Origin: an uncultured virus (IMG/VR IMGVR_UViG_3300011189_000010)
Taxonomy: Duplodnaviria > Heunggongvirae > Uroviricota > Caudoviricetes
IMG/VR virus record: IMGVR_UViG_3300011189_000010
Reading direction: 5' to 3' (one strand)
Length of the DNA: 20,000 nucleotides
A model generated the notes under the pieces. It saw only the letters and a list, made by a program, of their open reading frames with translations, was not told the DNA's origin and ran no database searches. Shown one piece after another: positions 1-17,664 of the stretch (the stretch's first letter is position 1; every line of letters begins with the position of its first letter). Both the position numbers and the translations under genes were made by a program.

Positions 1-2838
1 ATGTTAGACACACATTGGATTGATGGTATTTACGATGGTGGGCACTTTAAGGGCGTTGAGTATTTGACAGGAAATTTTATATCTACATCTTATGAAGATG
101 GTTTACTATCTATTAAAACAGATTTAAAACACAATCTAGCAGTAAATGATATAATAGAAATTATATTAGACGATGATATAACAGTTAACACTGAATATAA
201 TGGAGAACATCGTGTAATAAAGATAAAAAATTCTTTTGAAGTTATATTAGATCAAGAATGGGGGCAGAGTGTTACTGATGAAAGTGGGACTTACAAAACT
301 GGTTATTCAACTGGTCTTATACAAAATATGGATTTTAAAAGCAATAATGTATCTAGACTAACTTCCAATAAAACGCTTAACTCTCTAGCAGTTTTTAACT
401 ATAACTCTTGGTTGGATGTTACCTACTATGAAGATACTGCTGTTAATATCGGCAAACCACAAACAGTATTGAATAAGGTGTCTAGAAAGTATTTTTCAGA
501 GAATAACTTATATGGTTATCCAACGAATGATGTATTATCTAGTAGTTCTAATTTTAGGGATTCTTTCTCTTTAAACAAAAGACTATATAGTCTTGGTACA
601 AAGTTTAAGATATTTAGTGATTACATTGGTGAATCTTCCGAATTTAAGGATTTCTTTGGACCATCAGGTGATGATTTAGACTTATTTTTAGAAAAAGGAT
701 GGTCATTCTCTATACCACAGAACTCAACAAGTTCTATTACCCCTAGTCTAACATTTGATAGGACAGAAAGTTTAGGTGGATTTACAGTTATACAAGGCGA
801 AGAACTTAAAATGTTGTCTAGTGGACAAGGTGGTGTTTTGGACTTAGACGAACCACTTGTTGATGTATTAGGAAGGGATAGGGCAGATATAGCTAGAAAT
901 AGATATACTCTTGTTGAATTCGATTTGGTTGAATATAACTCTGGGGAAAATGAATATAGGTTTCCTATAGATTCTCAATTTGGTGGAAATACTTTCTCTT
1001 CTAGTTTATCACCTGAGCCTACAATACATTTTGATAACATAAACAAAACATCTAGGTTAGAAAATGTTGAGTTACAAAGTGGTGGAACGCAAGAAATTAT
1101 ACAATTAAGACCATCTACCTACTTACCAATTTATAAGAACATAAACCACATAATAACACCCAGAAAGAGAAAGGTTGAATACTTTTTCAACAAAAGGCAT
1201 TTATCTATGAATATAAGGGGTAGTGGATTATTAGGAGAGTTAGAAACTTCCACTATAATAGATAATTTGAAGTTACTTGAAATAAACATGGTACCTTTCT
1301 TCAAGTATTTTAGAGATGATAATATAAATAAAAGCATTCAGATACCATTTACTGGTGTTTCACCATATATAGATTATACAGATAATGACTTTGATTTTAT
1401 TGATAATATCGATATAAATTTAGGAACTATAAGTTTGAACACGGGTGATATAGATTTTGGTAACTCTGGGATAGATATAGGAATAATTGATGTACCCGAA
1501 CCACCAAGTGATGATGAGCCAGATGATCCATCACCAGGAGATGATCCTAATTTGATTATAGAAATACCTGTTTTGTTTGTTCCTAGAATTTTAGTAAGTG
1601 ATAATCATCGTATAAGACTAGACTTTTCAGGAATAGAATTCTTAGAAAATGCGTATATGCCTATTAGATTAAATATAGATTTTAAATTAGGTGTCAATGG
1701 TGAAAATATAACATTTTCAGAAACACTATCTATAAACTTTAATGGGACTGGTGTAATAGATGCACAGGGAATAGCAGATTCTGATTCATTTGTGAATGGT
1801 TTAATCAGCTTTAGAGATTCTGTCTTTAGTAATTCAGTTGATGAATATTCTGCTACTTACACAATAGGACCAGACTCTTTTGAAATTGAGAGTGTTATAA
1901 ATAATTCAATTATATTATTTTTACCTAATACAAGATTTACTACTACTGATGGCATAACAGAAAGATATTCTTATATAAATACAGATACTACAGCATCAGT
2001 AGAGGTCTATGGAAATATACCAAATGAGCCGAATGAACCTTCGTTAAGTGTGACACCAGAAAGTCTTACACTACCTAATAATAATAGTGGTAATGGTAGT
2101 TTTATAATAGATTCTAATGGAGCTTGGACAGTTAGTAAGTCAGCACCTTGGATTAATGATTTAACAGTAGAGAGTGGAGAGGGCAATGCTAATTATAGCT
2201 TTAGTTATCAAGGAAATTCTAAAGTTAGTGAAAGAGATGGTACTATTACTGTGTCACAAGTTGGTGGTAACCTCCAAGCAACTTATACACTTACACAACC
2301 TGGTGATCAACCTTATTTGGTTATTTCTAACGAAGGTCAAGTCTCTAGTGCTACCAGAGAAGTTAGTTCTAATGGGGGAAATTATACTATTGAAGTAGCT
2401 AGTAATACTAATTGGTCTATTGATACTAATGCTCCTTCTTGGTTAAGTGTATCACCACTCAGTTCATTTGGTACTAAAGATGTGGTTGTTTCACGCTTAC
2501 AGAACACCACATCTGGTCCTAGAGTAGGTATTATAACGGTTAGTGAGGATAATGGAAATTTAAGTGTTACACAAGAAGTAACACAAACATCTAGTGGAAA
2601 TGATGAAGAGACATTATTCCTTCATAATTTAAGTTCAGGTAGTACATCAGCTTTGGCATGTCAAAGCCAGTCTACATTATCCTATTATACAAATAATGAT
2701 ATATTTGAACGTTCTACAAAAGTATATGCTAACTTTATTGGAAGTATAGGTGCTAATGGATTTGTGTCTAATGGATTTGGATCATTAGAAGTAGATAATG
2801 GTACTGTAATTAGTGGTGTATTACCTTGTGGAAGATAA
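1..2838 (+). CDS. Large putative virion/tail protein (probably 5'-truncated by the window edge) with a Pro/Asp linker and two C-terminal BACON-like Ig-fold domains
   Basis: 945-aa ORF starting at base 1. It begins with WIDGI-YDGGH-FKG (WxxG-type repeat), has a PEPPSDDEPDDPSPGDDP linker at 1495-1548, and two BACON-like units (I-x-SN-x-x-W...W...SG-x-G...N...R-x-G-x-ITV) at about 2044-2300 and 2311-2590. Domain calls are by eye. Confidence 0.65.
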   Translation: MLDTHWIDGIYDGGHFKGVEYLTGNFISTSYEDGLLSIKTDLKHNLAVNDIIEIILDDDITVNTEYNGEHRVIKIKNSFEVILDQEWGQSVTDESGTYKTGYSTGLIQNMDFKSNNVSRLTSNKTLNSLAVFNYNSWLDVTYYEDTAVNIGKPQTVLNKVSRKYFSENNLYGYPTNDVLSSSSNFRDSFSLNKRLYSLGTKFKIFSDYIGESSEFKDFFGPSGDDLDLFLEKGWSFSIPQNSTSSITPSLTFDRTESLGGFTVIQGEELKMLSSGQGGVLDLDEPLVDVLGRDRADIARNRYTLVEFDLVEYNSGENEYRFPIDSQFGGNTFSSSLSPEPTIHFDNINKTSRLENVELQSGGTQEIIQLRPSTYLPIYKNINHIITPRKRKVEYFFNKRHLSMNIRGSGLLGELETSTIIDNLKLLEINMVPFFKYFRDDNINKSIQIPFTGVSPYIDYTDNDFDFIDNIDINLGTISLNTGDIDFGNSGIDIGIIDVPEPPSDDEPDDPSPGDDPNLIIEIPVLFVPRILVSDNHRIRLDFSGIEFLENAYMPIRLNIDFKLGVNGENITFSETLSINFNGTGVIDAQGIADSDSFVNGLISFRDSVFSNSVDEYSATYTIGPDSFEIESVINNSIILFLPNTRFTTTDGITERYSYINTDTTASVEVYGNIPNEPNEPSLSVTPESLTLPNNNSGNGSFIIDSNGAWTVSKSAPWINDLTVESGEGNANYSFSYQGNSKVSERDGTITVSQVGGNLQATYTLTQPGDQPYLVISNEGQVSSATREVSSNGGNYTIEVASNTNWSIDTNAPSWLSVSPLSSFGTKDVVVSRLQNTTSGPRVGIITVSEDNGNLSVTQEVTQTSSGNDEETLFLHNLSSGSTSALACQSQSTLSYYTNNDIFERSTKVYANFIGSIGANGFVSNGFGSLEVDNGTVISGVLPCGR

Positions 2839-2843
2839 TTTTA

Positions 2844-3554
2844 TTACTTTTTGATAACTAATAAATATCCAACTTTACCAGATTTAGAAAAATGACCCAT
2901 AGAGTTAAATTTAGTTATTTCACCACTTAGTTTAATATTGGCTTTTTGTAGACCAAAAATTCTTCCTTCACCCTTACACTTTCCACATCTATTTAGACCA
3001 ACTTGACCTTTACCAAAACAAAAAGAACATGGTTGTCCATTATATTCTTTCCCAGTACCTTCACAGAAATCACAACCATCATCAGGATCGAATGTTCTAA
3101 TAACCTTTCCTTTATTATCTTTTATCTCTATCTTAGAATTCAAATCTTTGCCATTACCATCACAAGTCTTACATCTAATCCATCTCTCATATTTTAGATT
3201 ACCACTAAAACTATCATCAACCTCTATTTGTATATTATTTACTTGGTTGTTTTTAAAATCTTCTAATTTCTGCTTACTCTTGTCATAATCAAAGTCATAA
3301 TCAACATCGAACATTTCAAGTTCCTCATTATAGTCTTTGCCATATATTGATTGATTATCATATTCCACTCTCTTGTTATTATCAGAAAGTACTTTATAAG
3401 CATCTGTTATTGCATTAAAAAGAGTGGGATCAATATCCTTGTTCCTATCAGGATGATATTTAAATGAAAGTTTATAATAGCTTTTTTTTATTTCCTTATC
3501 ACTCGATAAATGACTTACTTCTAATACAGAATAATAGTTTAAGTGTTTATTCAT
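2844..3554 (-). CDS. dnaJ: DnaJ-like co-chaperone (J-domain plus four-repeat zinc finger, shortened C-terminus)
   Basis: NYYSVLEV...EIKKSYYKLSFKYHPDRN...AYKVLSD J-domain with the HPD motif. Zinc-finger repeats CKTCDGNG, CDFCEGTG, CSFCFGKG, CGKCKGEG. Confidence 0.92.
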   Translation of the reverse strand: MNKHLNYYSVLEVSHLSSDKEIKKSYYKLSFKYHPDRNKDIDPTLFNAITDAYKVLSDNNKRVEYDNQSIYGKDYNEELEMFDVDYDFDYDKSKQKLEDFKNNQVNNIQIEVDDSFSGNLKYERWIRCKTCDGNGKDLNSKIEIKDNKGKVIRTFDPDDGCDFCEGTGKEYNGQPCSFCFGKGQVGLNRCGKCKGEGRIFGLQKANIKLSGEITKFNSMGHFSKSGKVGYLLVIKK

Positions 3555-3961
3555 GCCTGATATAAATAGTTTTCTATTTTCTTAATTGTATAATTAGTTA
3601 AAGCAACAAAATCACTTAATACTTCACTAGGAACATTTAACGATAACATCTCTATACTAACAATATTATCTACCCATCTAGGATTTTTTTTAAGATTAAT
3701 ATACAAATTGCTTATATATTTTAATCCTTTTGTATTTTTGTTCTGAATAATAATTGTCTTATCAGATGAATCATTTGTTTCTCTTATAACCTTGTCTCTT
3801 AATAAGTTATATTGTTTATATTTGTTATTATAATTATTATAAAACGATTTTGACCAAAAGTCCATAGATATACCTTCTCCTGTGTGTAAAGTATTGAGAT
3901 AATCTAGATTATATAGATTATCTGTAATCATTATCTTATTTATATATTTGTAGTCACTCAT
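3551..3961 (-). CDS. Hypothetical protein (136 aa; alternative start at 3931)
   Basis: Stop overlaps the dnaJ start (ATGA coupling). An in-frame ATG at 3931 lies 9 nt downstream of an AATATATA motif. Confidence 0.7.
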   Translation of the reverse strand: MSDYKYINKIMITDNLYNLDYLNTLHTGEGISMDFWSKSFYNNYNNKYKQYNLLRDKVIRETNDSSDKTIIIQNKNTKGLKYISNLYINLKKNPRWVDNIVSIEMLSLNVPSEVLSDFVALTNYTIKKIENYLYQA

Positions 3962-3982
3962 TACTTATCTATTTAATATTCT
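3951..3982. repeat. Direct repeat copy 1 (32 bp) flanking the methyltransferase
   Basis: tagtcactcattacttatctatttaatattct; 30/32 identical to 4797-4828, with a 21-bp perfect core at 3962-3982. Confidence 0.9.
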
Positions 3983-4724
3983 TTTCTTTCCTTCTTTTTA
4001 TAGCAAGGTTATAAATAGACAAATTATTCTCAATACTTATACTATTCCTACCAAGTTCAAAGCTTGCAATTCCTGTTGTATCACTTCCACAAGTATTGTC
4101 TAAAACAGTATCTTTTTTATCAGTATATGTTTCAATTAAGTATTTTATCAAGTCTATTGGTTTTTGGGAAGAGTGTATTCTACTATAATTATCAACACAC
4201 TTAAATTCAAGTAAATTAGTTGGATACCTTGTTGTTTTTCCACCTTTATAATCTCTCTTATTAGTCCCGTGATAGGCTGTTCCATCAGAGCATCCTTTCG
4301 CACTATTTGTCGGTTCGTGTCCTTCTGTTATTTGTGGGCAATATTTTCCCTTTTTGAAAATAACAATCTCTTCAACTTTTCTTGTAGGCATACGTTTTGC
4401 GTGAAAAAAGTTTGTTGCTTGATTTTTTACCCAATACCAAACATATCTATAATCCTTTTCGTTGCTACTTATTATTTTCGTTGTAAAGGGCTGGGAAGCA
4501 AATAAGGCTATTGTACCGTTTTTGGATATAATTCTATTGTATTGCTCCCAAAGTTTATCAGAGGGTATTATCTCATCCCATTTAGGTGCGGTCATACCAT
4601 AAGGTAAATCACAACAAATAAAATCAATACTCTTGTCTGGTATTCGTTTCATTTCTTCCAAGCAGTTACCAAACCATAATAGGTTATTTGTCTTCCCATC
4701 ATCAACCATTTTGTCATCATTCAA
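3969..4724 (-). CDS. DNA N6-adenine/N4-cytosine methyltransferase, beta class (N6_N4_Mtase family)
   Basis: GNCLEEMKRIPDKSIDFICCDLPYG (motif IV), HSSQKPIDLIKYLI, and VLDNTCGSDTTG (motif I region near the C-terminus). Start is TTG at 4724 or ATG at 4709. Confidence 0.9.
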   Translation of the reverse strand: MNDDKMVDDGKTNNLLWFGNCLEEMKRIPDKSIDFICCDLPYGMTAPKWDEIIPSDKLWEQYNRIISKNGTIALFASQPFTTKIISSNEKDYRYVWYWVKNQATNFFHAKRMPTRKVEEIVIFKKGKYCPQITEGHEPTNSAKGCSDGTAYHGTNKRDYKGGKTTRYPTNLLEFKCVDNYSRIHSSQKPIDLIKYLIETYTDKKDTVLDNTCGSDTTGIASFELGRNSISIENNLSIYNLAIKRRKEKNIK

Positions 4725-4796
4725 GAAAAATATTATTATTCGTCTTCATCCAAAGTTTTTTTTATTATTAAATCATACTAGACATACAACAATGTA

Positions 4797-4828
4797 TAGT
4801 TACTCAATACTTATCTATTTAATATTCT
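4797..4828. repeat. Direct repeat copy 2 (32 bp) flanking the methyltransferase
   Basis: tagttactcaatacttatctatttaatattct; overlaps the SbcC/gp46 stop codon and lies 846 bp from copy 1. Confidence 0.9.
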
Positions 4829-6516
4829 AGTTCTTCTATACTAGAAAAAATGTCTTTATTTATTTGTATTATATTATCAAACATTTCTTGGCTTAGTATA
4901 GCATGGTGGACTACGAATATATTAATGTTATAGTCATTTGCAAACGATTTAAGCAATAGTAGTATAGAATCTATGCCCTCTAAGTCTAATGAAGAGAACA
5001 CCTCATCTAGGAAAAGAATGTTAATATGTTTTTTAGTTCTTATAAGTTTTAAGTAAGCAATTAAAATACATATATTTATTTTCTTTGTTTCCCCAGTAGA
5101 CAAAGAATCGTGATCAACAACTGCTCCCAATGATTTTATCTCTGCTGTAAATGTTTCGTCTAATCTAACTTCAAAGTTTAGATTCATTTTTTTAATATTC
5201 TCTCCTATGAAATGATTTATAGGTTTTATTATATTTGTTATTATAGATTTCTTAACACCATCTTCGCTAAGTATTCTATTTAACTCTTTATAATAAAGTT
5301 CTTTTTCTTTATTACTAGTTATTTCTTCTGAACTCTTTTCTTTCTTCTTACTAAGTTCCTTAATGGTTTCTTTAAACTCAGATATGTTAGATGTGTCTTC
5401 TTCTTTTAAGTTTGTCTTTTGCTTAGATTTAAAATCATCAATCTTTGTTTTATAATTTTTAAGAAGGTATTTCAAATCATTAAAAGACTCACTAGTTGAA
5501 TTTGATATGCCATCTAATTTAGTTTTCTTATTTTTTAAAGATTGTATATTTTCTTTTATTTCAGTAGCAATGGCATCATATCCTTTCTTTTTCTCTAACA
5601 AAGATGATTTAAGGTCTAGAAATTTCTCAGAGTTAAAATCAGTAGCACATGTTGGGCATTTTCCAGAGTTATATAAGTTTATTTCTTTCTGGACGTTTCT
5701 GATGTCATTGTTTGTATTTATAAGTTGCCTATTTTCAGATTCTAATTCTTTGGACAAAATAGAATCTTTCTCTTGGATTTTAGATACTTTAGATTTTAAT
5801 AAAATATATTCTTCCTTCCTAGAGTTTGCTTCATTTGTGATGCTATCAATATCTGATTGTAAATTTTCTTTCTCTCGTTCCAATGATTTTTTTATGGACT
5901 TTTTTATAGAGTCTATAGACTGTTCTAATGTAGATATTTCAGAATCTAGGGACGTTATTTTATTTTTATTAACCTTATTTAGTTCCTTCAGGATACCATT
6001 TAGGATATTAATAACTTCTAGGTTAAATAGTTTATCTAATAATAGTTGCTTTTCTTCCTTTGTTAAAGATATGAAGTTTTTAAAATCATTGATAGACATT
6101 GAAATAAATGATTTAAAAGTTTCTATATCAACACCAACATATTCTTCTATTTTATCGTTTATATTTCCCTTTCCAGCCCTCTCATTTAAGACACCATTTT
6201 CCCACAACTCTAATTTATTTGGTGATATACCTCTTTTGACTTCAACATCAACTCCTTCTGATTTGAATTTTATTCTGTTCAATAACTCACCATTTATTCT
6301 ATTTGGTAATGTCCCTAACTTGTACCATTTCTTAGCTTTGTTTGATTTAACTTTTCCATATAATGTATATTCAAAACTCTCCAAAAGAGATGATTTACCA
6401 TGTCCGTTGTTCCCTGTCAATAGGATTAATTTTCCCTCATCAGTTGATAGATTTAGAACTTGTTCATTATTACCAAAAGATTTATAACCCTTTATACCAA
6501 TTTCGCTTATAAGCAT
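4819..6516 (-). CDS. sbcC: SbcC/Rad50-family ATPase, T4 gp46-like recombination nuclease subunit
   Basis: N-terminal IKGYKSFG, Walker A GNNGHGKSS, coiled coils with a central CPTC zinc hook, signature LSTGE, Walker B/D-loop ILFLDEVFSSLD, H-loop VVHH. At 565 aa it is short, like phage gp46. Confidence 0.92.
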   Translation of the reverse strand: MLISEIGIKGYKSFGNNEQVLNLSTDEGKLILLTGNNGHGKSSLLESFEYTLYGKVKSNKAKKWYKLGTLPNRINGELLNRIKFKSEGVDVEVKRGISPNKLELWENGVLNERAGKGNINDKIEEYVGVDIETFKSFISMSINDFKNFISLTKEEKQLLLDKLFNLEVINILNGILKELNKVNKNKITSLDSEISTLEQSIDSIKKSIKKSLEREKENLQSDIDSITNEANSRKEEYILLKSKVSKIQEKDSILSKELESENRQLINTNNDIRNVQKEINLYNSGKCPTCATDFNSEKFLDLKSSLLEKKKGYDAIATEIKENIQSLKNKKTKLDGISNSTSESFNDLKYLLKNYKTKIDDFKSKQKTNLKEEDTSNISEFKETIKELSKKKEKSSEEITSNKEKELYYKELNRILSEDGVKKSIITNIIKPINHFIGENIKKMNLNFEVRLDETFTAEIKSLGAVVDHDSLSTGETKKINICILIAYLKLIRTKKHINILFLDEVFSSLDLEGIDSILLLLKSFANDYNINIFVVHHAILSQEMFDNIIQINKDIFSSIEELEY

Positions 6517-6535
6517 TTTTTAAAATTTTAAATTA

Positions 6536-6871
6536 TTACTTTTTATCTTCTTTGTTGTTTTTATCTAAATAGATGTCGTATTTGTTAGGTTCGAAATCAT
6601 CAACTATATTTATTATCTCATCATACGGTACTACTTTCTTAATAATACTAATCATAAGTTCAGTGTAGCCTTCATAATCTTCTATATCACATTCAAGCTC
6701 TTTCTCTAATTCTTTATCTGGTGTTAATACTAATAAATCTTCTGTATAGAAAAAGGTAGCTTCATAGAATGTTCCATCAAGACCCAAAGATAGCAAAGTT
6801 ATTACTCCACCCTCATGTTTTCCTAGATAATCTATTATATTTATTGATATTTTATTTTTTATATCACTCAC
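6536..6871 (-). CDS. Hypothetical acidic protein (111 aa)
   Basis: GTG start overlapping the upstream TGA stop (GTGA); packed in the minus-strand gene run. Confidence 0.75.
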   Translation of the reverse strand: MSDIKNKISINIIDYLGKHEGGVITLLSLGLDGTFYEATFFYTEDLLVLTPDKELEKELECDIEDYEGYTELMISIIKKVVPYDEIINIVDDFEPNKYDIYLDKNNKEDKK

Positions 6872-7107
6872 TCTTTTAATGTTTTTAATTTTTCATCCCT
6901 AACATCTTTATCATAACTTCTTAGATAGCCCCCTATAATCAAAGTTTTAAACAAGGAGTCTGCCTGTTTATTAAGGCCTTGGTCATAACACATTAAAGCA
7001 TCTCTATAATAAGTGTTTATCATTTCAAACTTTTTAATATTTCTTATTTTTAATACTTTTTTAATATCTAGATAATAGTCGCTATAGTTGTTATTGAATG
7101 ATGTCAT
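6868..7107 (-). CDS. Hypothetical protein (79 aa)
   Basis: Tightly packed ORF with an ATG start, ending ...VRDEKLKTLKE. Confidence 0.7.
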   Translation of the reverse strand: MTSFNNNYSDYYLDIKKVLKIRNIKKFEMINTYYRDALMCYDQGLNKQADSLFKTLIIGGYLRSYDKDVRDEKLKTLKE

Positions 7108-7386: not shown

Positions 7387-7713
7387 TTAAATATATCCTC
7401 TGTCTACTATATATGTATTATTACTTAAAAGTTTTAAATTATGTTCAATTTTCTTACAAATAGATATAAAATTAACAATGTCTTCATTTTCTAGTTCAAA
7501 CCATTCCCCACCTATTTTTTTAAATGAGTATAATCTATGTATTTGCGATTCTATCTTAGTACCATACTCTGATTCAAATATTTCAACTATTTTTAAACTA
7601 GCTGGATTACCAGTTTTTAGTTCTTTCAACCTTTTTTTGACTTCTCTACGAGTGATTCCTATTTTATATAATTTTTCATTATTTATTTCGGATGATATTA
7701 AATATACGTACAT
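7387..7713 (-). CDS. T5orf172/MUG113-like (GIY-YIG superfamily) protein
   Basis: YVYLI...LYKIGIT...KRLKELKTGNP...IESQIHRLY...GGEWF pattern. Confidence 0.85.
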   Translation of the reverse strand: MYVYLISSEINNEKLYKIGITRREVKKRLKELKTGNPASLKIVEIFESEYGTKIESQIHRLYSFKKIGGEWFELENEDIVNFISICKKIEHNLKLLSNNTYIVDRGYI

Positions 7714-7725: not shown

Positions 7726-7804
7726 TTCTATACACATCTCCTTTTAATGTTTTAGTTAGAAATAGTTTAAAAACATGCAACATCATGATATAATAATAAT
7801 ATAA

Positions 7805-8545
7805 TTAATTTTTTGTCTTAAAATGAATGTTAATCCAGAAATTACTAGTATCTAATTTAATCATTACCTTGCTCTTCCATTTTTTATTAGACATCCATTT
7901 TTTTAGATTAGACTTTAATTCTATCAACTGTTCATCACTAAAATTACCATTAACCCATTCACCAAAACCTTTATATCCAAATGTTATAACATTATCACTT
8001 ATAGTTGGATAAGACCTTTTGCTATAGAATCCAGGCTTATAATCCCTCATATCTTCTTTTATTCTACCAAAAGTAAGTAAATCATTATATGATATATTAA
8101 CAATTAGTTTTTTAAAAGAACTTGAAGACTTGGAGTCTAGACCAAGCACCCATTTTATAGTGGAATTAGACAATTTAAAACTACCTATTGGCAATAGTTT
8201 ATCTTCATAAGATATGCCATATTCTAATTTAGCCGAATTTTTAATACCAAAGTACATTTTTAACTTATCCTTAGAACCATCAATTAAACCGATATACTGT
8301 GTTAATGACTTAAATCTTTTGAATATAGTCCTTGCTTCAAAAGAACTTACTTCTTCTTGTTCAAAATACGCTATAAAGCCATCCTTAGAGTGTTTATAGT
8401 CTTGAGATATGTCTTTGTAACCTAAAGCAGTTAAAGTCTTTAAAAACGACTTAAAAACGCCTTTACCAGCTTTACTTATTTCTGTCTGTACTAAAGATTC
8501 TGATAATCCTTTGTACTTATAATATTCGTTAAACTTTTTAATCAT
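7805..8545 (-). CDS. Hypothetical protein (246 aa, basic)
   Basis: Long ORF overlapping the upstream stop by 8 nt; N-terminus MIKKFNEY...LSES. Confidence 0.8.
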   Translation of the reverse strand: MIKKFNEYYKYKGLSESLVQTEISKAGKGVFKSFLKTLTALGYKDISQDYKHSKDGFIAYFEQEEVSSFEARTIFKRFKSLTQYIGLIDGSKDKLKMYFGIKNSAKLEYGISYEDKLLPIGSFKLSNSTIKWVLGLDSKSSSSFKKLIVNISYNDLLTFGRIKEDMRDYKPGFYSKRSYPTISDNVITFGYKGFGEWVNGNFSDEQLIELKSNLKKWMSNKKWKSKVMIKLDTSNFWINIHFKTKN

Positions 8546-9377: not shown

Positions 9378-12062
9378 TTAATTTAATCTATTGATGCTAA
9401 TTTGATACCTTTCATTTAATTCATCTGAGTTACTGACTCTAGTAACTTTTATACTAGAACCTTTATTTAGTGAAAAATAAGGTTTATTACTCAATAAAGT
9501 AGAAGGTGGAACGTGAGTTGGATTATGTATTACAAATGGTGATTGACCTATATAAGTACTTACTAAATCATTATTAGAACTAATATCAATAACTATTTCA
9601 TTACCAGATATTGAATTTAAAATATACTGACCAGAGTAATCAAAAATAGATTCCTCTCCAAAAAATAAATTATTAAGAAGTAATGAGTCACCCGTATTTA
9701 AAGAACTTTCTACTAATATAGGATTTTCTTCTAATGATAGTTGAATAAGGTTATCTGATATAAGTGTTATGGGTTTACTAAAATCTATATTAAAATCAAA
9801 TCCATCCCATAGATAAGAAGAATTCGGAAGTTCTGTATTAGAATTATAATATACTGGTAAATCAATACCCCCAATTAAAAGTGTCTCAGTTTGTTCATTA
9901 TTATTAGATCCAGCATTTGATACCATAAATATATCTAGCTTTTTATTTTGTGTAGATTCTACAGTCCCTGTAATATTAATATCTAAAGTTTGCATAAGTG
10001 ATAAATCTTTATCTAAGATAATAGTAAGTTTATCATTATTATCTAGGTTTAGTTGTATTTTGTCATCATTTTTAATATTTATAAGAAAGTCTCTATTTCT
10101 AGGAACTAATAAACTTGTTGAAACTATACCATCTTGTGTGTATAATTCACTAGATAATATATTGTCTACTTTATCGTATTTATTATCAACATTTATTAAT
10201 TGAAACGTTGGGGGATTACCAGGTATCTCAACAACCTCAATACTACTACTGTTTTCGATTTGGTTCGTAGTATATAAACTTAATAACTTTTCTAAATTAC
10301 TTATTTTTGTATTTATAGTATTCAAATCAGTCTGTGTATATAAAAGACCTTTCAATGAATTTAGTTCATCTCTAACAAAAGATTGTTCTGCAATTGTCTT
10401 TAAGAAACTATCATTAGTAGATGATAAGGATTGCATAGCTTTATTGAATAAATTCATACTAAACATAGAATTTATAGCTTCTGGATTATAAGTTTCGGTT
10501 GGGTTATCATTTATTATATTAAAATTAAGACTTAAGTTAAATGCATATGATGTACCATCTTGCTCCCCATTAGCTACTAATTTTTTAATAGCAGGGAACT
10601 TAATATCCTTATCACCACTCAAGCTATTGCTAGGATTATCTAAAAATGATATACCATATAAGTTGGTAGTTGTATTACCATTATTATCCTCTACTGAATA
10701 GTACCATAAAATTGCATTAAATTCAAAATCTCTAGGTGGTTCATTATTAACATTAAGTGCATTAAACTGATCAAAATTACTAACAGTTCTGTTGGGTATA
10801 TTCATTTTGATATAATGACTAGTATCAAAGTCTAAAGTAACACCGTCAATTTTAGTATTATCAATAACTGGATTATTTATATCACCCTTAACACCATAGT
10901 AATCTCCATTCCTTCTTAGAGAATCACCATTTGATGTTCTGTATGTGAAATCTAGTGTATCAAATTGTCCAAAATATCCACCTGGGTAGTTTTGGCTAGA
11001 ACTTACTATTGGTGAGTTGAAAAGTTCGGCACCTCTTATCTCTGGTTGGTACTGATTAGGTATTATTGGAAAGGTTACATTTGGTTTATAATTCTCATCA
11101 GAGAGAGTTCTGAATAAAACATCGGGAGTCTTTCCTGTGTGGTCTGGTATATGAGCATAAACTTCTGTATAAGACCTATTAGCTTCTTGTACATTGGATA
11201 CTCCATTTATTTCTCCAACATATTGAACAAGCCTATTATAAACTAATCTAGCTTGACCAGTAGTCTCTATTATTTCGCTTAAATTAGACTCTAAATCAAC
11301 AATTATTCTTTGTCCAACACTACCAGTGCTAGGAAAACTTTTTAATATTTTTGTATTAACACCTTGCTCTGTGTCAGCATCAGATAGGCTTGACTCATTT
11401 AGTATATCAGAATTTGATACATTGTATATGTTTATAACATCACCTTCTATTAAATTAGTCGTACCATTAAATTGTATTTCTAACCTTGGTGGTAAGTTAA
11501 AATCTGTATCTTCTGTTTGTCTATATGCGACTGTGTCCCAATCTATTATTTCTCTTTCTTTCCACAAGTACTCTGGAAAGTATTCATCATTATTTATATC
11601 CCTAGATTCAAATTCTGTTAAATTACTAAAATACTCATCACTTGGTAAGGCTGGTTCTAATTGTAGTATATTCAATTTTTTACACCATTTCCAGAATATC
11701 TTTTCAGAGGTAGTCTCCAATGATTCATTATTATAATAGTATTCTGTATTATTGAGTCTTGACTCTCTTATAGTTACCTCTTGATTAGCAACATAATTTC
11801 TTAGAGATTCAACAATTGACTCACCATATGTGGCAGGTGGGTTAGCACCAGTGGATTTTGAAAACACATCAAAGTCAAAATAATTAGGACTAGATGTGGA
11901 TGTAGTATCTTGTTTTGGTAGATTAAGCAAAGTATACTTAGAAAAGTACATTTTATAATTACTGTTTTGGTATGCAGCACTTATGTCTTCTGCTGCTCCA
12001 GGAAAAGCATAAAATGTTGTACCATTTTGTTTTAATGATTTATAAAGAGGTGTTTTAGCCAT
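9378..12062 (-). CDS. Large hypothetical protein, probable virion structural component (894 aa)
   Basis: Long acidic, Asn-rich ORF with beta-rich stretches and a short coiled coil (RDELNSLKGLL...INTKISNLEKLL). No catalytic motif recognised. Confidence 0.65.
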   Translation of the reverse strand: MAKTPLYKSLKQNGTTFYAFPGAAEDISAAYQNSNYKMYFSKYTLLNLPKQDTTSTSSPNYFDFDVFSKSTGANPPATYGESIVESLRNYVANQEVTIRESRLNNTEYYYNNESLETTSEKIFWKWCKKLNILQLEPALPSDEYFSNLTEFESRDINNDEYFPEYLWKEREIIDWDTVAYRQTEDTDFNLPPRLEIQFNGTTNLIEGDVINIYNVSNSDILNESSLSDADTEQGVNTKILKSFPSTGSVGQRIIVDLESNLSEIIETTGQARLVYNRLVQYVGEINGVSNVQEANRSYTEVYAHIPDHTGKTPDVLFRTLSDENYKPNVTFPIIPNQYQPEIRGAELFNSPIVSSSQNYPGGYFGQFDTLDFTYRTSNGDSLRRNGDYYGVKGDINNPVIDNTKIDGVTLDFDTSHYIKMNIPNRTVSNFDQFNALNVNNEPPRDFEFNAILWYYSVEDNNGNTTTNLYGISFLDNPSNSLSGDKDIKFPAIKKLVANGEQDGTSYAFNLSLNFNIINDNPTETYNPEAINSMFSMNLFNKAMQSLSSTNDSFLKTIAEQSFVRDELNSLKGLLYTQTDLNTINTKISNLEKLLSLYTTNQIENSSSIEVVEIPGNPPTFQLINVDNKYDKVDNILSSELYTQDGIVSTSLLVPRNRDFLINIKNDDKIQLNLDNNDKLTIILDKDLSLMQTLDINITGTVESTQNKKLDIFMVSNAGSNNNEQTETLLIGGIDLPVYYNSNTELPNSSYLWDGFDFNIDFSKPITLISDNLIQLSLEENPILVESSLNTGDSLLLNNLFFGEESIFDYSGQYILNSISGNEIVIDISSNNDLVSTYIGQSPFVIHNPTHVPPSTLLSNKPYFSLNKGSSIKVTRVSNSDELNERYQISINRLN

Positions 12063-12561: not shown

Positions 12562-15500
12562 TTATGACCAGTCTGCACTAAATACACCATCATACCACAC
12601 ACCACCTTTCCATATACCGTTCTCAAATAATCCATTAAACCAAAGACCACTTCTCCAATCTGCATTCCTAAACCTACTAACCGACCTAAAATCTAAGTTT
12701 TGTTCATTTACAGTGTCTTGTATATTTATATCAAGATATATATCACTGGTATTTTCATTTTGAATAGTATTTACGACAGAATATATACCAGGTTCTTCAT
12801 TAGTTCCTAGATTATATATATCAATTCCCCTAGATATAGCACTAAAGGATGATGTTTTATCTGCAATAATAGTTATTTGATCCCCTATATTATAACTATA
12901 AGGCTTATCAATAGTTATGTAGTTATTTTCTATATTAATACCAACAATGTTAATATCCTCTACAATTCCACCATACCACACACCAGACCTAAAGTCTATA
13001 TTATAAGCAACGCCACCATAAAATCCACCACTAAACCAAGTCCCTGTCTCCCATATAGAGTATTTGTGTACTTCTGATACATCATAATTACCATTAGTGT
13101 CAATATTTAATCTAGAATGAAAGGTTCCATTGATAAATTTACCAGACTTCCAAATAGAGGCTCTACTATTATATGATTTAACACCAAATCTTGACTCAAC
13201 ACCGTTTTTTTCATCAAAAACACCATTAAACCAAATTCCATTATCAAAATCTCCACCATTCCAAGTACCATCTAACCAATAAGCTGCCCCGTTATCCGTA
13301 CTAAACCTCCCATTATTCCAAGTACCGTCTATCCATATACCACTTGTAAATATACCATTTTCCCAAGTACCACCATTCCAGAGACCGTCAAACCATTGTC
13401 CGTTTATCCACTTTCCATCATACCATCTACCAGTATTCCAAGTACCATTTTCCCAAGTACCACCAAACCATCTACCAGTATTCCATACCGAACTAATATT
13501 GTTATCAGAGTTTACATCAATGGTTACATTTATAAAATTATCCTTTATATTTTTTGACTTCCATATACCACCAAACCAATCTCCAGATAACCAAGTACCA
13601 CTTATCCATGTACCACCAAACCATCTACCACATTCCCATCTTCCTTTATACCATACTAGACCATTATTATCAAGACCAATAACAGCATCGCTTATTTCAC
13701 TCTCATAAATCCATGAATAGTTTCTTGCTAAAGTCTCAACATCAAGACCATCAACTAATCTAAATCTGAATCTATTATAATCTACATTTGATAGAGAATA
13801 TAAACTACCAGCTAGTGTGGTGTTCTGTGGATTCAATTCTATTGACACCTTACCTAGTTTATCAACACCAACATCTATAAGGTCTGTTGGTTGATAATTT
13901 AAAAAGGGATCTTTCCTAATATATCTCACAGTCCCAGTATCTGTACCAATTAAAGGTCTATTTTCATAATTTATATCAGTAACTAAGTCAAATTCATTTA
14001 TTACATTAACAACTCTATATCCAAAATACTGAGGATTAAGTTCTTCTGATGAACCATTACCACCATTAAAATCTAGTATAACACCATCCCCATTTGAAAG
14101 TTCGTGCTTTTGTGAACAAGAAACATATAATTTATTTTGAAACTCACTTGTATTCAATATAGGAACAGTTACTCTTTCCTCTAATCTAGTTATATTGAGT
14201 GCTAATTCATTTTTAAAATCAGTATAGACTATACCACTTATAGAATTATTAGTCGTAAAGTCTGATAATAATATTTTAGCATAGGAATCAGTATTTACTT
14301 TGAAATTTAATTTTTTATTTAGAGTTTCATATTCTACATCCCAAATCTGACCAGAATCAAAAGTCCCAGATTTATACTTCTTAGTAGAATATGACCTTTG
14401 TATATTATTCAATAACTGTAAATCACTACTTATAACCTCTAGTGATCTTCTTGACTCTATATCAATTGAGGTTAGTGGATTAACTTGGTTTTCATTTGGG
14501 TAAATAAATTCTTTGTGGAACTCTATAATATACGTATCCGTGCTTTGTTCATAATATTTATCAAAAACCAACATCTGTTCATTTGAAGATAAATCTTCGT
14601 CTTGGTATAAATTTATATTAACAAAGGTATTTAAAAAAATACTCTTCCATTCAAATTCTAAATTAGAGCCAAAAACTAATTTATTATTCTTCTTTATATT
14701 ATAGTCAATATAAATAGAATTTATATCATTTGCAGAGACTGGTATGTTATTATAAACAGGCATAGAGTAATATTCCTTTGTCGGAAAAAATCTAGGATTT
14801 ACTGTATTTATATCATTAATAGACTCTAAATAGTCTAATAAATTATAAGTTGGTGTGTAACCAAATTTTAGAAATGAGTCTTTATATTCCATTGTAGATA
14901 TTTTAGCACCATCATTAAGACTAAATAATGTAGTCATATTATAATATGATGTTATGTTATTGAATTTAGGTCTAAAATTTATTACACCATTATTGTTAAA
15001 TATTATATCATATCCCTTATATAATGGATGTTTTTTAAAATTAGATACAAGTGAATCTCTAGAATTAAATCTGTTTAAATTAGTTATTTTAATCTCTGAA
15101 TTTTTAAACATATTAATAATAGATTGGTTAAACTCTGTATATAGATATACAAATGTATTATCTAAAAACACAACAGTTTTATTAACCATAAAGTTTTCAT
15201 TTAGAAAATTTGTTTCTACATTTATGATATCGCCCTTACTTGGTATATCACTTAAATTACTATATTTTATAACCATTAAATAACTACCAAGATATATGTT
15301 TATAGCAGAATCAAGTGGTCTAGACACTTGTGGTTGTGAAATTGAACTAAATCTACTAAATTTATCATTGTATAGACTTGGTGATAATTTTAATAAATCA
15401 TCATCTGATGTAGAAATCCCTTTTATAAACCTTTGTACATTTTCTTCTGTTTTAGTAAATTTAGACGAAAATTCCACTTTGGTTGTGTCTGTCATTGGTG

Positions 15501-17664
15501 AGTTAGTATAGTGTTCGAATGTTGATGTACTATCTTTCCAATAATCTATCCAGTTAGTCTCATTTTCAAAGGACGAAAACTCTATACTACCACTGATAGA
15601 ATCATAGCTTATTTCTATAGATTCTGGTAGTCTGTATTCACCATCGTCTGTGAAAAAGTTTAATTTACTAGCAATATCATAATCTAGGAATAACATCTTT
15701 GACTTTAACTTGTTCAAGAATGTATCATCTATATCCTCAAATACTAAGGTATTATAATCAGAACTACTAAGTAAAGAATTATTACCACATATAACTATTT
15801 CGTTACCCCCAAAGTCAAATAACTTATTTGGATATAGTTCAGAAACAAAGTTAGCATTAGTTGCAGTTATAGACCTATTATCAAAGCGTGTTCCAACTCC
15901 TATAGAATTGAAATCATCTAAACTGAATGAAAATATACCATTACTATCTGTTTCTTGATTAAAACCAACAAAATAAAAAGTATTAGTGCCTTCTTTTCTC
16001 TCAATATTTACTATATCCCCGTAGTTTTTGTCCTTAAACTCCATAAATAAAAAATCAGTATCAAGTGGTATAGATTCATTTATATCATAAAATATTATAT
16101 TACTATCATTGGTAACTATTATAACTAGTTCCTTCGGACTATCAGTTATAGTTATATTAGACTCAGAAGCATTGAACGATGTATAAAATGGATTCCAATT
16201 ATCAACGGTTGTTATGATTATATCATTTATATTATCAACTAATAAAAACTCATCATCTTCATCTAAAAATTTGGATATCCTCCTCTTGAATGCCGTCCAT
16301 TTATCACCATCGTTCTTAATCTCTAAAAACACGCCATTATCCCCACCTATAAATATCTTATTTGTATTATAAAAGATAACTTTGTTAAAATTAAATGATT
16401 GAAAAGCCTTAACATCAAATGGTATCCAATCCTTGCCACCATTAGATGTTATAAATATTGTATTATTATCACCAACTAAAACACCATTAAGATCATTAAA
16501 GAATGATATAGAATTTAAATTACTCACGACTTGTGTATTAGATTTTATTAACTCTATTTTATCTACTTCAAAATCGTGTTTCCTAGTTCTTAATAGATTA
16601 CCCTTATTGCCCACTATCCAATAATATAATGTAGTCTGTGATATACTTTTCAAATCTACTTTAAACTTATTTCTTATTATATTGCTTCTACCGTCTTGAT
16701 TATTTATAATAGATCCAAATTCTCCAACAGATATTATCCTCTCTGGTATTGAGTAATTGGTTTCGTTAAATTCATACGATTGTGTTCCGTGTTTTAAAAG
16801 GTCGTAATAATTTAAATCGGCTATGTTATTATAATCTAATTGATTTCTAAGTAGTTTATTTTCTTTTTGAACAAATTCAATAGGCTCATTAAATCTAGTT
16901 GTTGGATAATATCCATTAGATAACCTAGACAGATGAAACTGTTTATCTTTATTCACTAAACCTAATTTAACACTTACACTATATCTAATACACTTCTGAT
17001 AATCGTCTAAATCATCTTCTTTAACAAGCCTATCATTTTTTACCAAATATATACCATTCCTTTCATCAAAATACTCATAAGTAGTATTAGTACCCAATGT
17101 ATCTACTACAGTATAATTTCCTTCGAAGAAATCATCTGGATTTGTTGTTATTTGTAATATAATAGTTTTCTTTTGGTCTTTTACAAGTACTCTATGTCCT
17201 TCTAAAACTCTAACACCATCTATTTTAGTATCTCCAAGATTTGCACTTAAGTCTAGTATATCATCTGTTGTTGCCAAGTCAACATATATGAAGCTATTAA
17301 AAGATTCTCCTATTATTTTCTCTGGTGTGAAAAGGTTTTTTAGAGTAAGTCCATATTCTGATAAATTCTTTGTATAAAATTCATATGCAGTATCTCTATT
17401 TATAGGCGTGGGATACCTAGGTGGTACTAATGTGTTAACATAATCAGAAACACTTGGATCAATATACCATGTCTTATATCTTCTATTTGATAGTATATCA
17501 TATATATTATCTTCATCATTAAATGGTATATAAGTAGCACCACTTAGACAATTTGAATAAAACCTAACACTTTCTTGTTCTTGTTTTAAAAATTCATAAT
17601 TGTCATGAATTAAAGTATCTTTCTTACTAAACCATTTATCTTCTATTTTGTTATATTCCCACAT
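12562..17664 (-). CDS. Very large multidomain putative virion/tail protein (1700 aa): tail-fibre-like motif, YCF48/BNR-like propeller blades, C-terminal (W/F)xxGx repeats
   Basis: VDLATT...KIDGVRVLEGHRVLVKDQ...NGIY motif at about 17290-17040; LNSISFFNDLNGVLVGDNNTIFITSNGGKDW blade/Asp-box pattern at about 16740-16290; pentapeptide repeats at 13653-12565. Confidence 0.7.
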   Translation of the reverse strand: MWEYNKIEDKWFSKKDTLIHDNYEFLKQEQESVRFYSNCLSGATYIPFNDEDNIYDILSNRRYKTWYIDPSVSDYVNTLVPPRYPTPINRDTAYEFYTKNLSEYGLTLKNLFTPEKIIGESFNSFIYVDLATTDDILDLSANLGDTKIDGVRVLEGHRVLVKDQKKTIILQITTNPDDFFEGNYTVVDTLGTNTTYEYFDERNGIYLVKNDRLVKEDDLDDYQKCIRYSVSVKLGLVNKDKQFHLSRLSNGYYPTTRFNEPIEFVQKENKLLRNQLDYNNIADLNYYDLLKHGTQSYEFNETNYSIPERIISVGEFGSIINNQDGRSNIIRNKFKVDLKSISQTTLYYWIVGNKGNLLRTRKHDFEVDKIELIKSNTQVVSNLNSISFFNDLNGVLVGDNNTIFITSNGGKDWIPFDVKAFQSFNFNKVIFYNTNKIFIGGDNGVFLEIKNDGDKWTAFKRRISKFLDEDDEFLLVDNINDIIITTVDNWNPFYTSFNASESNITITDSPKELVIIVTNDSNIIFYDINESIPLDTDFLFMEFKDKNYGDIVNIERKEGTNTFYFVGFNQETDSNGIFSFSLDDFNSIGVGTRFDNRSITATNANFVSELYPNKLFDFGGNEIVICGNNSLLSSSDYNTLVFEDIDDTFLNKLKSKMLFLDYDIASKLNFFTDDGEYRLPESIEISYDSISGSIEFSSFENETNWIDYWKDSTSTFEHYTNSPMTDTTKVEFSSKFTKTEENVQRFIKGISTSDDDLLKLSPSLYNDKFSRFSSISQPQVSRPLDSAINIYLGSYLMVIKYSNLSDIPSKGDIINVETNFLNENFMVNKTVVFLDNTFVYLYTEFNQSIINMFKNSEIKITNLNRFNSRDSLVSNFKKHPLYKGYDIIFNNNGVINFRPKFNNITSYYNMTTLFSLNDGAKISTMEYKDSFLKFGYTPTYNLLDYLESINDINTVNPRFFPTKEYYSMPVYNNIPVSANDINSIYIDYNIKKNNKLVFGSNLEFEWKSIFLNTFVNINLYQDEDLSSNEQMLVFDKYYEQSTDTYIIEFHKEFIYPNENQVNPLTSIDIESRRSLEVISSDLQLLNNIQRSYSTKKYKSGTFDSGQIWDVEYETLNKKLNFKVNTDSYAKILLSDFTTNNSISGIVYTDFKNELALNITRLEERVTVPILNTSEFQNKLYVSCSQKHELSNGDGVILDFNGGNGSSEELNPQYFGYRVVNVINEFDLVTDINYENRPLIGTDTGTVRYIRKDPFLNYQPTDLIDVGVDKLGKVSIELNPQNTTLAGSLYSLSNVDYNRFRFRLVDGLDVETLARNYSWIYESEISDAVIGLDNNGLVWYKGRWECGRWFGGTWISGTWLSGDWFGGIWKSKNIKDNFINVTIDVNSDNNISSVWNTGRWFGGTWENGTWNTGRWYDGKWINGQWFDGLWNGGTWENGIFTSGIWIDGTWNNGRFSTDNGAAYWLDGTWNGGDFDNGIWFNGVFDEKNGVESRFGVKSYNSRASIWKSGKFINGTFHSRLNIDTNGNYDVSEVHKYSIWETGTWFSGGFYGGVAYNIDFRSGVWYGGIVEDINIVGINIENNYITIDKPYSYNIGDQITIIADKTSSFSAISRGIDIYNLGTNEEPGIYSVVNTIQNENTSDIYLDINIQDTVNEQNLDFRSVSRFRNADWRSGLWFNGLFENGIWKGGVWYDGVFSADWS
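12565..13653 (-). repeat. Coding pentapeptide repeat region (W/F)-x-x-G-x, about 34 units in six blocks
   Basis: For example WNTGR WFGGT WENGT WNTGR WYDGK WINGQ WFDGL WNGGT WENGI FTSGI WIDGT WNNGR. Exact nucleotide repeats at 13353-13375/13443-13465 and 13423-13440/13468-13485. Confidence 0.9.

Follow-up and report, generated by a model that had tools for sequence, protein, structure and literature searches.

The 20,000-nucleotide stretch of DNA analysed here (the window) comes from an uncultured virus (IMG/VR record IMGVR_UViG_3300011189_000010), and its open reading frames (ORFs) from about position 12062 down to 2844 all lie on the minus strand. Within this run a gene for a predicted beta-class DNA methyltransferase stands between a gene for an SbcC/gp46-like ATPase, its upstream neighbour, and a gene for a 136-aa protein, its downstream neighbour, and is bracketed by a 32-base direct repeat (Table 1). 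A preliminary description of the window had taken the methyltransferase gene and a short leader for an inserted cassette. The repeat was described correctly there: the two copies match at 30 of 32 positions with mismatches only at 3955/4801 and 3961/4807, they share a perfect stretch of 21 bases (plus strand, 3962-3982 = 4808-4828), and their start-to-start spacing is 846. More specifically, the upstream copy holds the end of the SbcC-like gene (GAA TAT TAA) and a decayed 136-aa gene start (TTG AGT AAC), and the downstream copy holds the end of the methyltransferase gene (AAT ATT AAA TAG, with the ORF ending at 3969) and the intact start ATG AGT GAC. The repeat is composed of the stop codon, 11-base spacer and start codon of the local junction. 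Both differences between the copies lie in the functionless part of the upstream copy, and one of them turns ATG into TTG. Note that the native 3' end of the SbcC-like gene lies inside the upstream copy; the homologue of this gene in the related phage LR745206.1 (L002) has a similar end.

The repeat is confined to this locus. Its 20-base core, at up to three mismatches, has two copies in the window, whereas shuffled sequences contain 0.04 on average, and none of the 200 shuffles has as many as two. The nearest record to the window, G001 (141.5 kb, 99% identical to the window, rated 20% complete), also contains two copies of the core and none of a control pattern. In three complete relatives (1.9 Mb) six matches with three mismatches were found versus nine for the reversed control. 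With only two copies, no shuffle reaching that number and no excess in the relatives, the repeat is neither a chance match nor a dispersed motif, and the possibility of a dispersed regulatory element, raised in the preliminary description, can be set aside. An exact 31-base pattern gave no match in the viral contigs searched, and no terminator-like site is predicted in 3400-5400. A promoter scan of the leader was uninformative; the consensus used is that of sigma-70, which may not suit the host.

Metagenome contigs were scanned with a 22-base pattern covering both repeat copies, and four contigs were returned. Two copies are present in Ga0306912_1000004 (the same record as G001; spacing 844), in Ga0306906_1000034 (spacing 845; 99.98% identical to the window over 2500-7000) and in Ga0307932_1000004 (spacing 1066), which shows that the repeat pair is not an assembly artefact of a single data set. 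The fourth contig, Ga0307974_1000015 (L092), has one copy and lacks the cassette. With its single repeat it runs from the SbcC 3' end through TAA and 11 bases to the ATG that opens the 136-aa gene, exactly the empty site that had been predicted. Its flanks are 98.9% identical to the window over 2500-3982 (1483 bases) and 98.6% over 4797-4934 (138 bases), the contig ending 106 bases into SbcC. The interval is inserted DNA and is absent between the same neighbours in L092, and the locus is polymorphic for the cassette (window and three contigs versus L092), in agreement with the gain and loss that had been proposed for it.

A likely type of donor was found in L019, a small tailed-phage contig unrelated to the phage of the window. 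Its methyltransferase gene is surrounded by genes for tail, connector and head proteins and has the opposite orientation to them; this tail/head module contains two tandem PF01555-type methyltransferase genes (2333-3190 and 3959-4786, plus strand). Nucleotide identity between L019 and the window is 78% over 4798-4499 and 81% over 4175-3974. The homology begins just inside the edge of the upstream repeat copy, includes the leader, and ends in the downstream copy after AATATTA. The L019 ORF extends 16 codons past this joint, where the window continues with the spacer of the target, which marks the window copy as truncated and derived. At the right joint, the 3' end of the donor-type gene and the end of the SbcC-like gene have in common the nine bases AGAATATTA. 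As AGAATATTA belongs to donor and target alike, pure target duplication is limited to the other 23 bases of the repeat. At the left joint donor and target share at most 2-3 bases. The option of a long target duplication, one of two origins offered in the preliminary description, is therefore the one that holds: the repeat is a duplicated junction of SbcC stop and next gene. The upstream repeat copy is identical among the four cassette-bearing sequences, and the identity of repeat copies, leader and gene ends in all four points to a single event.

Four public runs were examined as Logan contigs (k=31); long records had been filtered out, and most of SbcC is uncovered, so that the runs are uninformative there. 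Contigs with donor-type 3' ends, of depths 38-109, occur in X3, X7 and X22. Their agreement with the window stops at 3974; beyond it, the reverse complement of the loose end was judged by eye to equal the L019 continuation in 29 of 30 bases. Judging from these contigs, a donor-type gene with its native 3' end, including AGAATATTA, is evidently present in the same waters.

The centre of the methyltransferase gene has a different history from its ends. In the window it resembles other relatives and not L019 (Table 1). In L093, one of the three contigs with the cassette (methyltransferase gene at 3019-4020, minus strand), the gene ends are the same, with the centre replaced by a diverged segment that is 222 bases longer; the 333-aa protein still matches PF01555, and its central insert of about 75 residues gives no separate Pfam match up to E 0.01. 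Run X3 contains the same central replacement, with a joint of 4109 to 4597 and 709 letters between. The methyltransferase gene is accordingly mosaic, its middle being exchanged between phages, and the exchanged middle is probably the target-recognition part.

We also asked whether homologous methyltransferase genes elsewhere are flanked by repeats, a check that had been suggested for this cassette. From 177 viral-contig stretches with methyltransferase relatives 80 loci were kept and the 42 best were taken for scoring, with the truncated L028 excluded; one locus lay too close to a contig end, leaving 41. The flanking-repeat score is 26 at the window and at most 14 at the 41 homologous loci, none of which (0/41) exceeds the control level; displaced-window controls mostly score 17 or less, one of them 30. 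Repeat flanking is not a habit of this methyltransferase family.

Taken together, the data are best explained by a one-off illegitimate insertion, guided by microhomology, that duplicated 23-32 bases of the target and now segregates as a presence/absence polymorphism. We put the probability of this explanation at about 0.72. A methyltransferase gene with approximately 47 bases of its own upstream DNA would have come from an unrelated L019-type tailed phage and been joined directly after the stop codon of the SbcC-like gene through two illegitimate joints. The right joint would have formed at the nine bases AGAATATTA, shared by chance between the 3' region of the donor gene and the 3' end of SbcC, and the left joint at a target site lying 23 bases downstream of it. 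The joints would thus overlap on the target, so that everything between them came to be present twice: the SbcC stop codon, the spacer of 11 bases and the opening four codons (12 bases) of the 136-aa gene. In this process the methyltransferase would have lost its native C-terminal tail and taken a Lys-stop from the target. Two routes to such a structure are equally expected. Replication dependent on recombination could have switched template from target to donor and back to the target, with the nine bases as the landing site, or two reciprocal hybrids, each with a single joint, could have crossed over inside their shared donor DNA. All three complete relatives have a RecA-like gene, and the SbcC-like gene adjoins the site. 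Integration of a circle, the other origin considered in the preliminary description, is unneeded and fits poorly. Homologous integration of a circle needs 32 donor bases, and donor-like genes share only the first nine bases of the repeat; entry of a circle through these nine bases would have duplicated only those nine. Our literature search for illegitimate recombination in phages with both microhomology and direct repeats found nothing close among the papers it listed.

Table 1. Position of the cassette, its joints and the neighbouring genes in the window
Feature	Position	Strand	Remarks
Inserted DNA, 814 bases (leader and methyltransferase gene)	3983..4796	-	missing from the empty allele of L092
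Imported leader, 47 bases	4750..4796	-	homologous to the intergenic DNA that precedes the methyltransferase gene in L019
Beta-class N6/N4 DNA methyltransferase gene (predicted)	3969..4749	-	matches PF01555, phrog_67 and M.RsrI
Central part of the methyltransferase gene	4119..4670	-	like L018 and L008-L012 (77-81% nucleotide identity), not L019
Upstream repeat copy	4797..4828	-	last SbcC codons and TAA, 11-base spacer, decayed start relic
Downstream repeat copy	3951..3982	-	last three methyltransferase codons and TAG, spacer, start of the 136-aa gene
9-base microhomology AGAATATTA at the right joint	3974..3982	-	donor 3' end = SbcC end at 4820-4828
SbcC/gp46-like ATPase gene, upstream neighbour	6516..4819	-	phrog_77, E 3.5e-72
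136-aa gene, downstream neighbour, function unknown	3961..3551	-	kept in LR745206 and LR756502
DnaJ-like gene	3554..2844	-	

Several observations suggest that the empty and filled alleles live side by side. The last 127 bases of L092 (3012-3138) begin at repeat position 12, just past the last position that distinguishes the two copies, which is the end point at which empty and filled paths would merge in a graph with k=127. If k was indeed 127 (assembler settings are assumed), the empty junction would be supported by k-mers far longer than the 21 identical bases, and so by reads that span it, and the filled form would be present in the same sample. In run X7, one contig of depth 68.4 covers 3300-3982 and stops at the last repeat base, a contig of depth 47.5 runs from 3953 into the methyltransferase gene, one of depth 39.2 covers 4647-4837, and one Logan contig (record 22) spans the leader and the upstream repeat copy into SbcC. 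These end points, with overlaps of 30 bases, are consistent with the branch nodes predicted if both alleles coexist; a purely filled population would not branch there, since the copies differ within any 31-mer reaching those points. In the X7 bin 4780-4853 about 820 depth-bases are unlisted, equal to 39 bases at depth 21, the difference between 68.4 and 47.5; this is arithmetic only. Word shares of 0.62-0.75 in 18 salt-lake runs were rejected as evidence because they lie close to the 0.62 expected from the flanks alone and only X7 and X22 of the 18 are among the four runs examined.

Which of the two alleles is older is not settled by the flanks. In 3020 bases of left flank there are 116 differences between L092 and the window, versus 0-27 among the cassette carriers themselves, with 85 of the 116 concentrated in window positions 963-1462 (BACON gene) and only two in 3213-3982. 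A flank phylogeny for polarising empty versus filled was rejected, as the differences are clustered and only two fall within 770 bases. Such uneven differences indicate that the flanks recombine, so that insertion and deletion cannot be told apart from them. It is simpler to assume that L092 was never filled than that it has lost the cassette. Three alleles are found in the lake populations, one empty and two filled, which differ from each other in the central segment, and homologous recombination in flanks of kilobase length has probably carried them from strain to strain during co-infection. Regardless of the cassette, positions 963-1462 of the BACON-domain ORF (1..2838, plus strand) are hypervariable, with 85 L092 differences in 500 bases versus 0-12 per 250 nearby, and may be a recombination tract or a region that varies with host range.

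Some results weigh against the proposed insertion or against parts of it. The two mismatches within the 23 duplicated bases (~9%) stand out against a flank divergence of 0.26% (3213-3982); the joint may have been imprecise, the relic start may have been selected against, or the insertion may be old with flanks that were homogenised later. The left boundary comes from a single comparator, L019, at about 78% identity, and the joint may be a few bases off. The donor lineage itself is a deduction. Coexistence of the alleles in X7 and in the L092 sample is read from contig ends and depth arithmetic, and no contig skipping the 846 bases is listed among the Logan contigs of the four runs. The GC content of the cassette (31.6% versus 28.5% for the window) is equalled or exceeded in 65 of 384 windows of the same size, so that composition was rejected as evidence of a foreign source. 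The first 13 codons of the methyltransferase gene of the window are out of frame because of an extra T. Finally, the activity, specificity and protective effect of the enzyme are predictions made from its family.

An alternative that has to be considered is that the cassette is mobile at present. Recombination between the repeats would excise a circle of 846 bases, the circle would re-enter empty genomes at their single junction copy, the empty allele would be a recent and reversible deletion, and the gene would be switched on and off. The 21 identical bases suffice for low-rate homologous or single-strand-annealing recombination, the relatives encode RecA-like (3 of 3 complete relatives) and SbcC-like proteins, and a crossover in the 21-base core would yield the exact sequence of L092, although a site that was never filled would show the same sequence. 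The empty and filled backgrounds are nearly identical (two differences in 770 bases), and one unbranched flank contig in X7 is apparently common to both forms, but exchange through kilobase flanks during co-infection explains shared backgrounds without any excision. Mini-circles of the promoter-early stem-loop (PeSL) cassettes offer a documented precedent (Arbiol et al. 2010; PMC2839356). The preliminary description had suggested that the cassette may still be excisable; neither a skip of 846 bases nor a circle joint is listed in the contigs of the four runs (contigs, not reads), which is a weak argument since contigs drop rare forms. Homologous integration over 32 bases cannot in any case be the origin of the cassette, as donor-type genes share 9 of the 32 bases. 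We regard current mobility as unlikely. A bolder version, in which the duplicated junction is a portable recombination site through which the cassette leaves as an 846-base circle and re-enters empty genomes, and acts together with central-segment exchange as a recombinase-free, reversible and re-targetable anti-restriction switch in phages of more than 600 kb, seems to us quite improbable.

The repeats could also resemble the attL and attR sites of a recombinase encoded elsewhere in the >600-kb genome, with the cassette mobilised in trans. A core of 21 identical bases, next to less well matched ones and on both sides of one gene, would suit this idea; the nearest record samples only about 20% of the genome, and one distant relative has a serine recombinase. 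However, a tyrosine integrase (PF00589) was found in none of four records, i.e. three complete relatives and the partial G001. A serine recombinase (PF00239) is present in only one of the four, LR756504, the most distant, being found neither in the two closest complete relatives nor in G001 (about 20% complete). The core occurs nowhere else in G001 and is not in excess in the relatives, all parts of the repeat (stop codon, spacer, start codon) belong to the target itself, and donor-type genes lack the core beyond nine bases. In the window, too, a Pfam scan of 16 ORFs found no recombinase or transposase family. Mobilisation from such sites is therefore very unlikely. Coincidence, a regulatory motif common to both sites or faulty assembly is scarcely credible as the source of the repeat. 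AT-rich DNA (28.5% GC) raises the number of chance matches and short repeats can mislead assemblers, but no shuffle out of 200 gives two copies, the displaced controls of the 41 loci mostly stay below the score of the window, the structure recurs in four separate assemblies, the X7 Logan contig joins leader, upstream copy and SbcC, and the motif is not dispersed in G001 or in the three complete relatives. Mobilisation by a homing endonuclease was considered and rejected: the candidate ORF is 2.5 kb off, and the alleles differ only by the cassette. This candidate, a free-standing T5orf172/MUG113 (GIY-YIG-like endonuclease) ORF at 7387-7713 (minus strand) among small ORFs of unknown function, is possibly a homing endonuclease.

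Regarding the product of the inserted gene, it matches PF01555 with 76.2 bits (cut-off 26.7) over profile positions 1-220 of 221 and phrog_67 with E 1.3e-60, and its best relative of solved structure is M.RsrI (E 4.4e-13 over residues 5-226). Catalytic motif IV of the beta class is (D/N/S)-P-P-(Y/F) and lies near the N terminus. The window protein has D-L-P-Y-G at the place that aligns with DPPY of M.RsrI, and all 28 aligned family members carry this variant (27 DLPY, one DLPF). Being kept across all 28, D-L-P-Y/F-G is probably functional, though it is not the textbook motif. The glycine motif that binds S-adenosylmethionine reads G-S-D-T-T in the window, L093 and L019, versus G-S-G-T-T in most relatives and G-S-C-S-T in some.

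A short leader does precede the gene, as the preliminary description had it, but its true length is about 47 bases, since the ORF of three related contigs starts at the ATG equivalent to 4749. The extra T mentioned above lies in the T run at 4726-4730 and causes the frame shift; L088, L090, L093 and an X7 contig do not have it. The open frame of the window runs from TTG 4724 (or ATG 4709) to 3969. Either the window copy has lost 13 N-terminal codons or it carries a sequencing error.

Genes of the PF01555 family number three in each of the relatives and at least two in G001. No partner restriction enzyme is evident near the methyltransferase gene of the window. An orphan role against restriction is the standard inference for such phage methyltransferase genes. 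By family membership, the enzyme most likely modifies phage DNA (N6-adenine or N4-cytosine) and would thereby shield it from the restriction enzymes of the host. The gene stands in an operon of same-strand genes with no predicted terminator nearby and is probably transcribed by read-through from SbcC.

As to the neighbours, the SbcC-like ORF gives Pfam matches to SMC_N and SbcC_Walker_B, both under the Pfam cut-offs, and among the viral contigs searched its protein has one distant relative (L007, 41% identity). The 136-aa protein is 34% identical to a 144-aa ORF of LR745206.1 (E 8e-24); it has no Pfam or PHROG match and no relatives among the viral contigs searched. Its gene occurs with or without an adjoining methyltransferase gene.

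A high-identity search of phage records with the window gave no match. At lower identity the best phage matches were the uncultured phages LR745206.1, LR756502.1 and LR756504.1, of which LR745206.1 (634,780 bases) is 70.7% identical over 62% of window positions 3000-6600. [quoted passage not shown] The phage of the window is an uncultured megaphage related to LR745206 and LR756502. The public runs that contain this stretch are labelled as lake-water and salt-lake metagenomes.

The gene content between SbcC and the counterpart of the 136-aa gene differs among the relatives. This slot holds no gene in L092 and one, the methyltransferase gene, in the window. In LR745206 it holds three small genes, for a UVR-motif protein, a protein of unknown function and a homologue of ribosomal protein S21, and in LR756502 it spans about 3.2 kb with about seven ORFs. 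The S21 homologue (3978-4172 of L002, minus strand; PF01165, E 2.5e-12) adjoins the UVR-motif protein. The slot is a hyperplastic spot like those of T4-type phages (PMC2839356).

Other features of the window deserve a short mention. The Pfam scan identified, besides the BACON-domain protein, an intein-bearing PhoH: the PhoH-like ATPase gene at 17991-19766 (plus strand) has an intein-like insert, with LAGLIDADG_3 (E 1.9e-9), Hom_end and a weak Hint match preceding the PhoH domain. A 1700-aa ORF (12562..17664, minus strand) has a BNR-like match and, at 12579-13654, many copies of a repeat with a period of 15 bases; this very large protein may therefore have a pentapeptide-type repeat domain. About 50 intergenic bases at 7768-7819 have matches of 82-88% in G001 at 11470-11517 and 91953-92008 and may represent a dispersed intergenic motif.

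Illegitimate recombination is assumed to build the mosaicism of phage genomes, and the joints are seldom preserved. This locus shows together both joints, the microhomology, the duplication, a donor-type gene from the same habitat, the unfilled allele and a later swap of the central segment. It provides a natural example of how giant phages gain anti-restriction genes and re-tool them, and a marker locus for tracking gain and loss in time-series metagenomes.

In comparison with known systems, the cassette resembles transposons and insertion sequences in having a direct target duplication on both sides of the insert. It differs from them in that there is no transposase in the window and, by eye, no terminal inverted repeat at the ends of the insert; moreover, the duplication of 23-32 bases is longer than usual, and one joint lies in nine bases of homology between donor and target. 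With methyltransferases of the M.RsrI and M.MboIIA type (PF01555) the enzyme has in common a full-length domain match and the order of the motifs, DPPY-like near the N terminus and glycine motif near the C terminus. It departs from them in having D-L-P-Y(F)-G for D-P-P-Y, in its G-S-D-T-T glycine motif and in standing without a nearby partner restriction enzyme.

The PeSL cassettes of T4-type phages offer another parallel (Arbiol et al. 2010; PMC2839356). There, too, a single non-essential ORF lies in a hyperplastic region with direct repeats around it, a close relative (here L092) has one repeat copy and no ORF, and in the absence of a dedicated recombinase the phage's own homologous recombination is proposed to move the ORF. 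PeSL repeats, however, are regulatory motifs of about 100 bases that combine a promoter with a terminator hairpin and are dispersed over many sites, whereas the repeat of the window has 32 bases, two copies, the makeup of a local stop/spacer/start junction and no predicted terminator. Mini-circles of PeSL cassettes were shown physically, whereas the cassette of the window is known from its sequence.

A further comparison is with morons. The cassette adds a gene between neighbours that adjoin each other in a relative, L092, from which it is precisely absent, it brought upstream DNA of its own in the form of the 47-base leader, it has a probable role in the interaction with the host, and the same gene family forms an opposite-strand insert among the tail and head genes of L019. 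Morons of this kind, orphan methyltransferase genes that tailed phages pick up by illegitimate recombination, are a concept credited to Hendrix and colleagues. In contrast to a typical moron, the cassette has no predicted terminator of its own and no distinct composition, and both joints, the microhomology, the duplication of 23-32 bases and the unfilled allele have all been kept, which is uncommon. The locus is thus a well-preserved case of a known process and not a new kind of mobile element.

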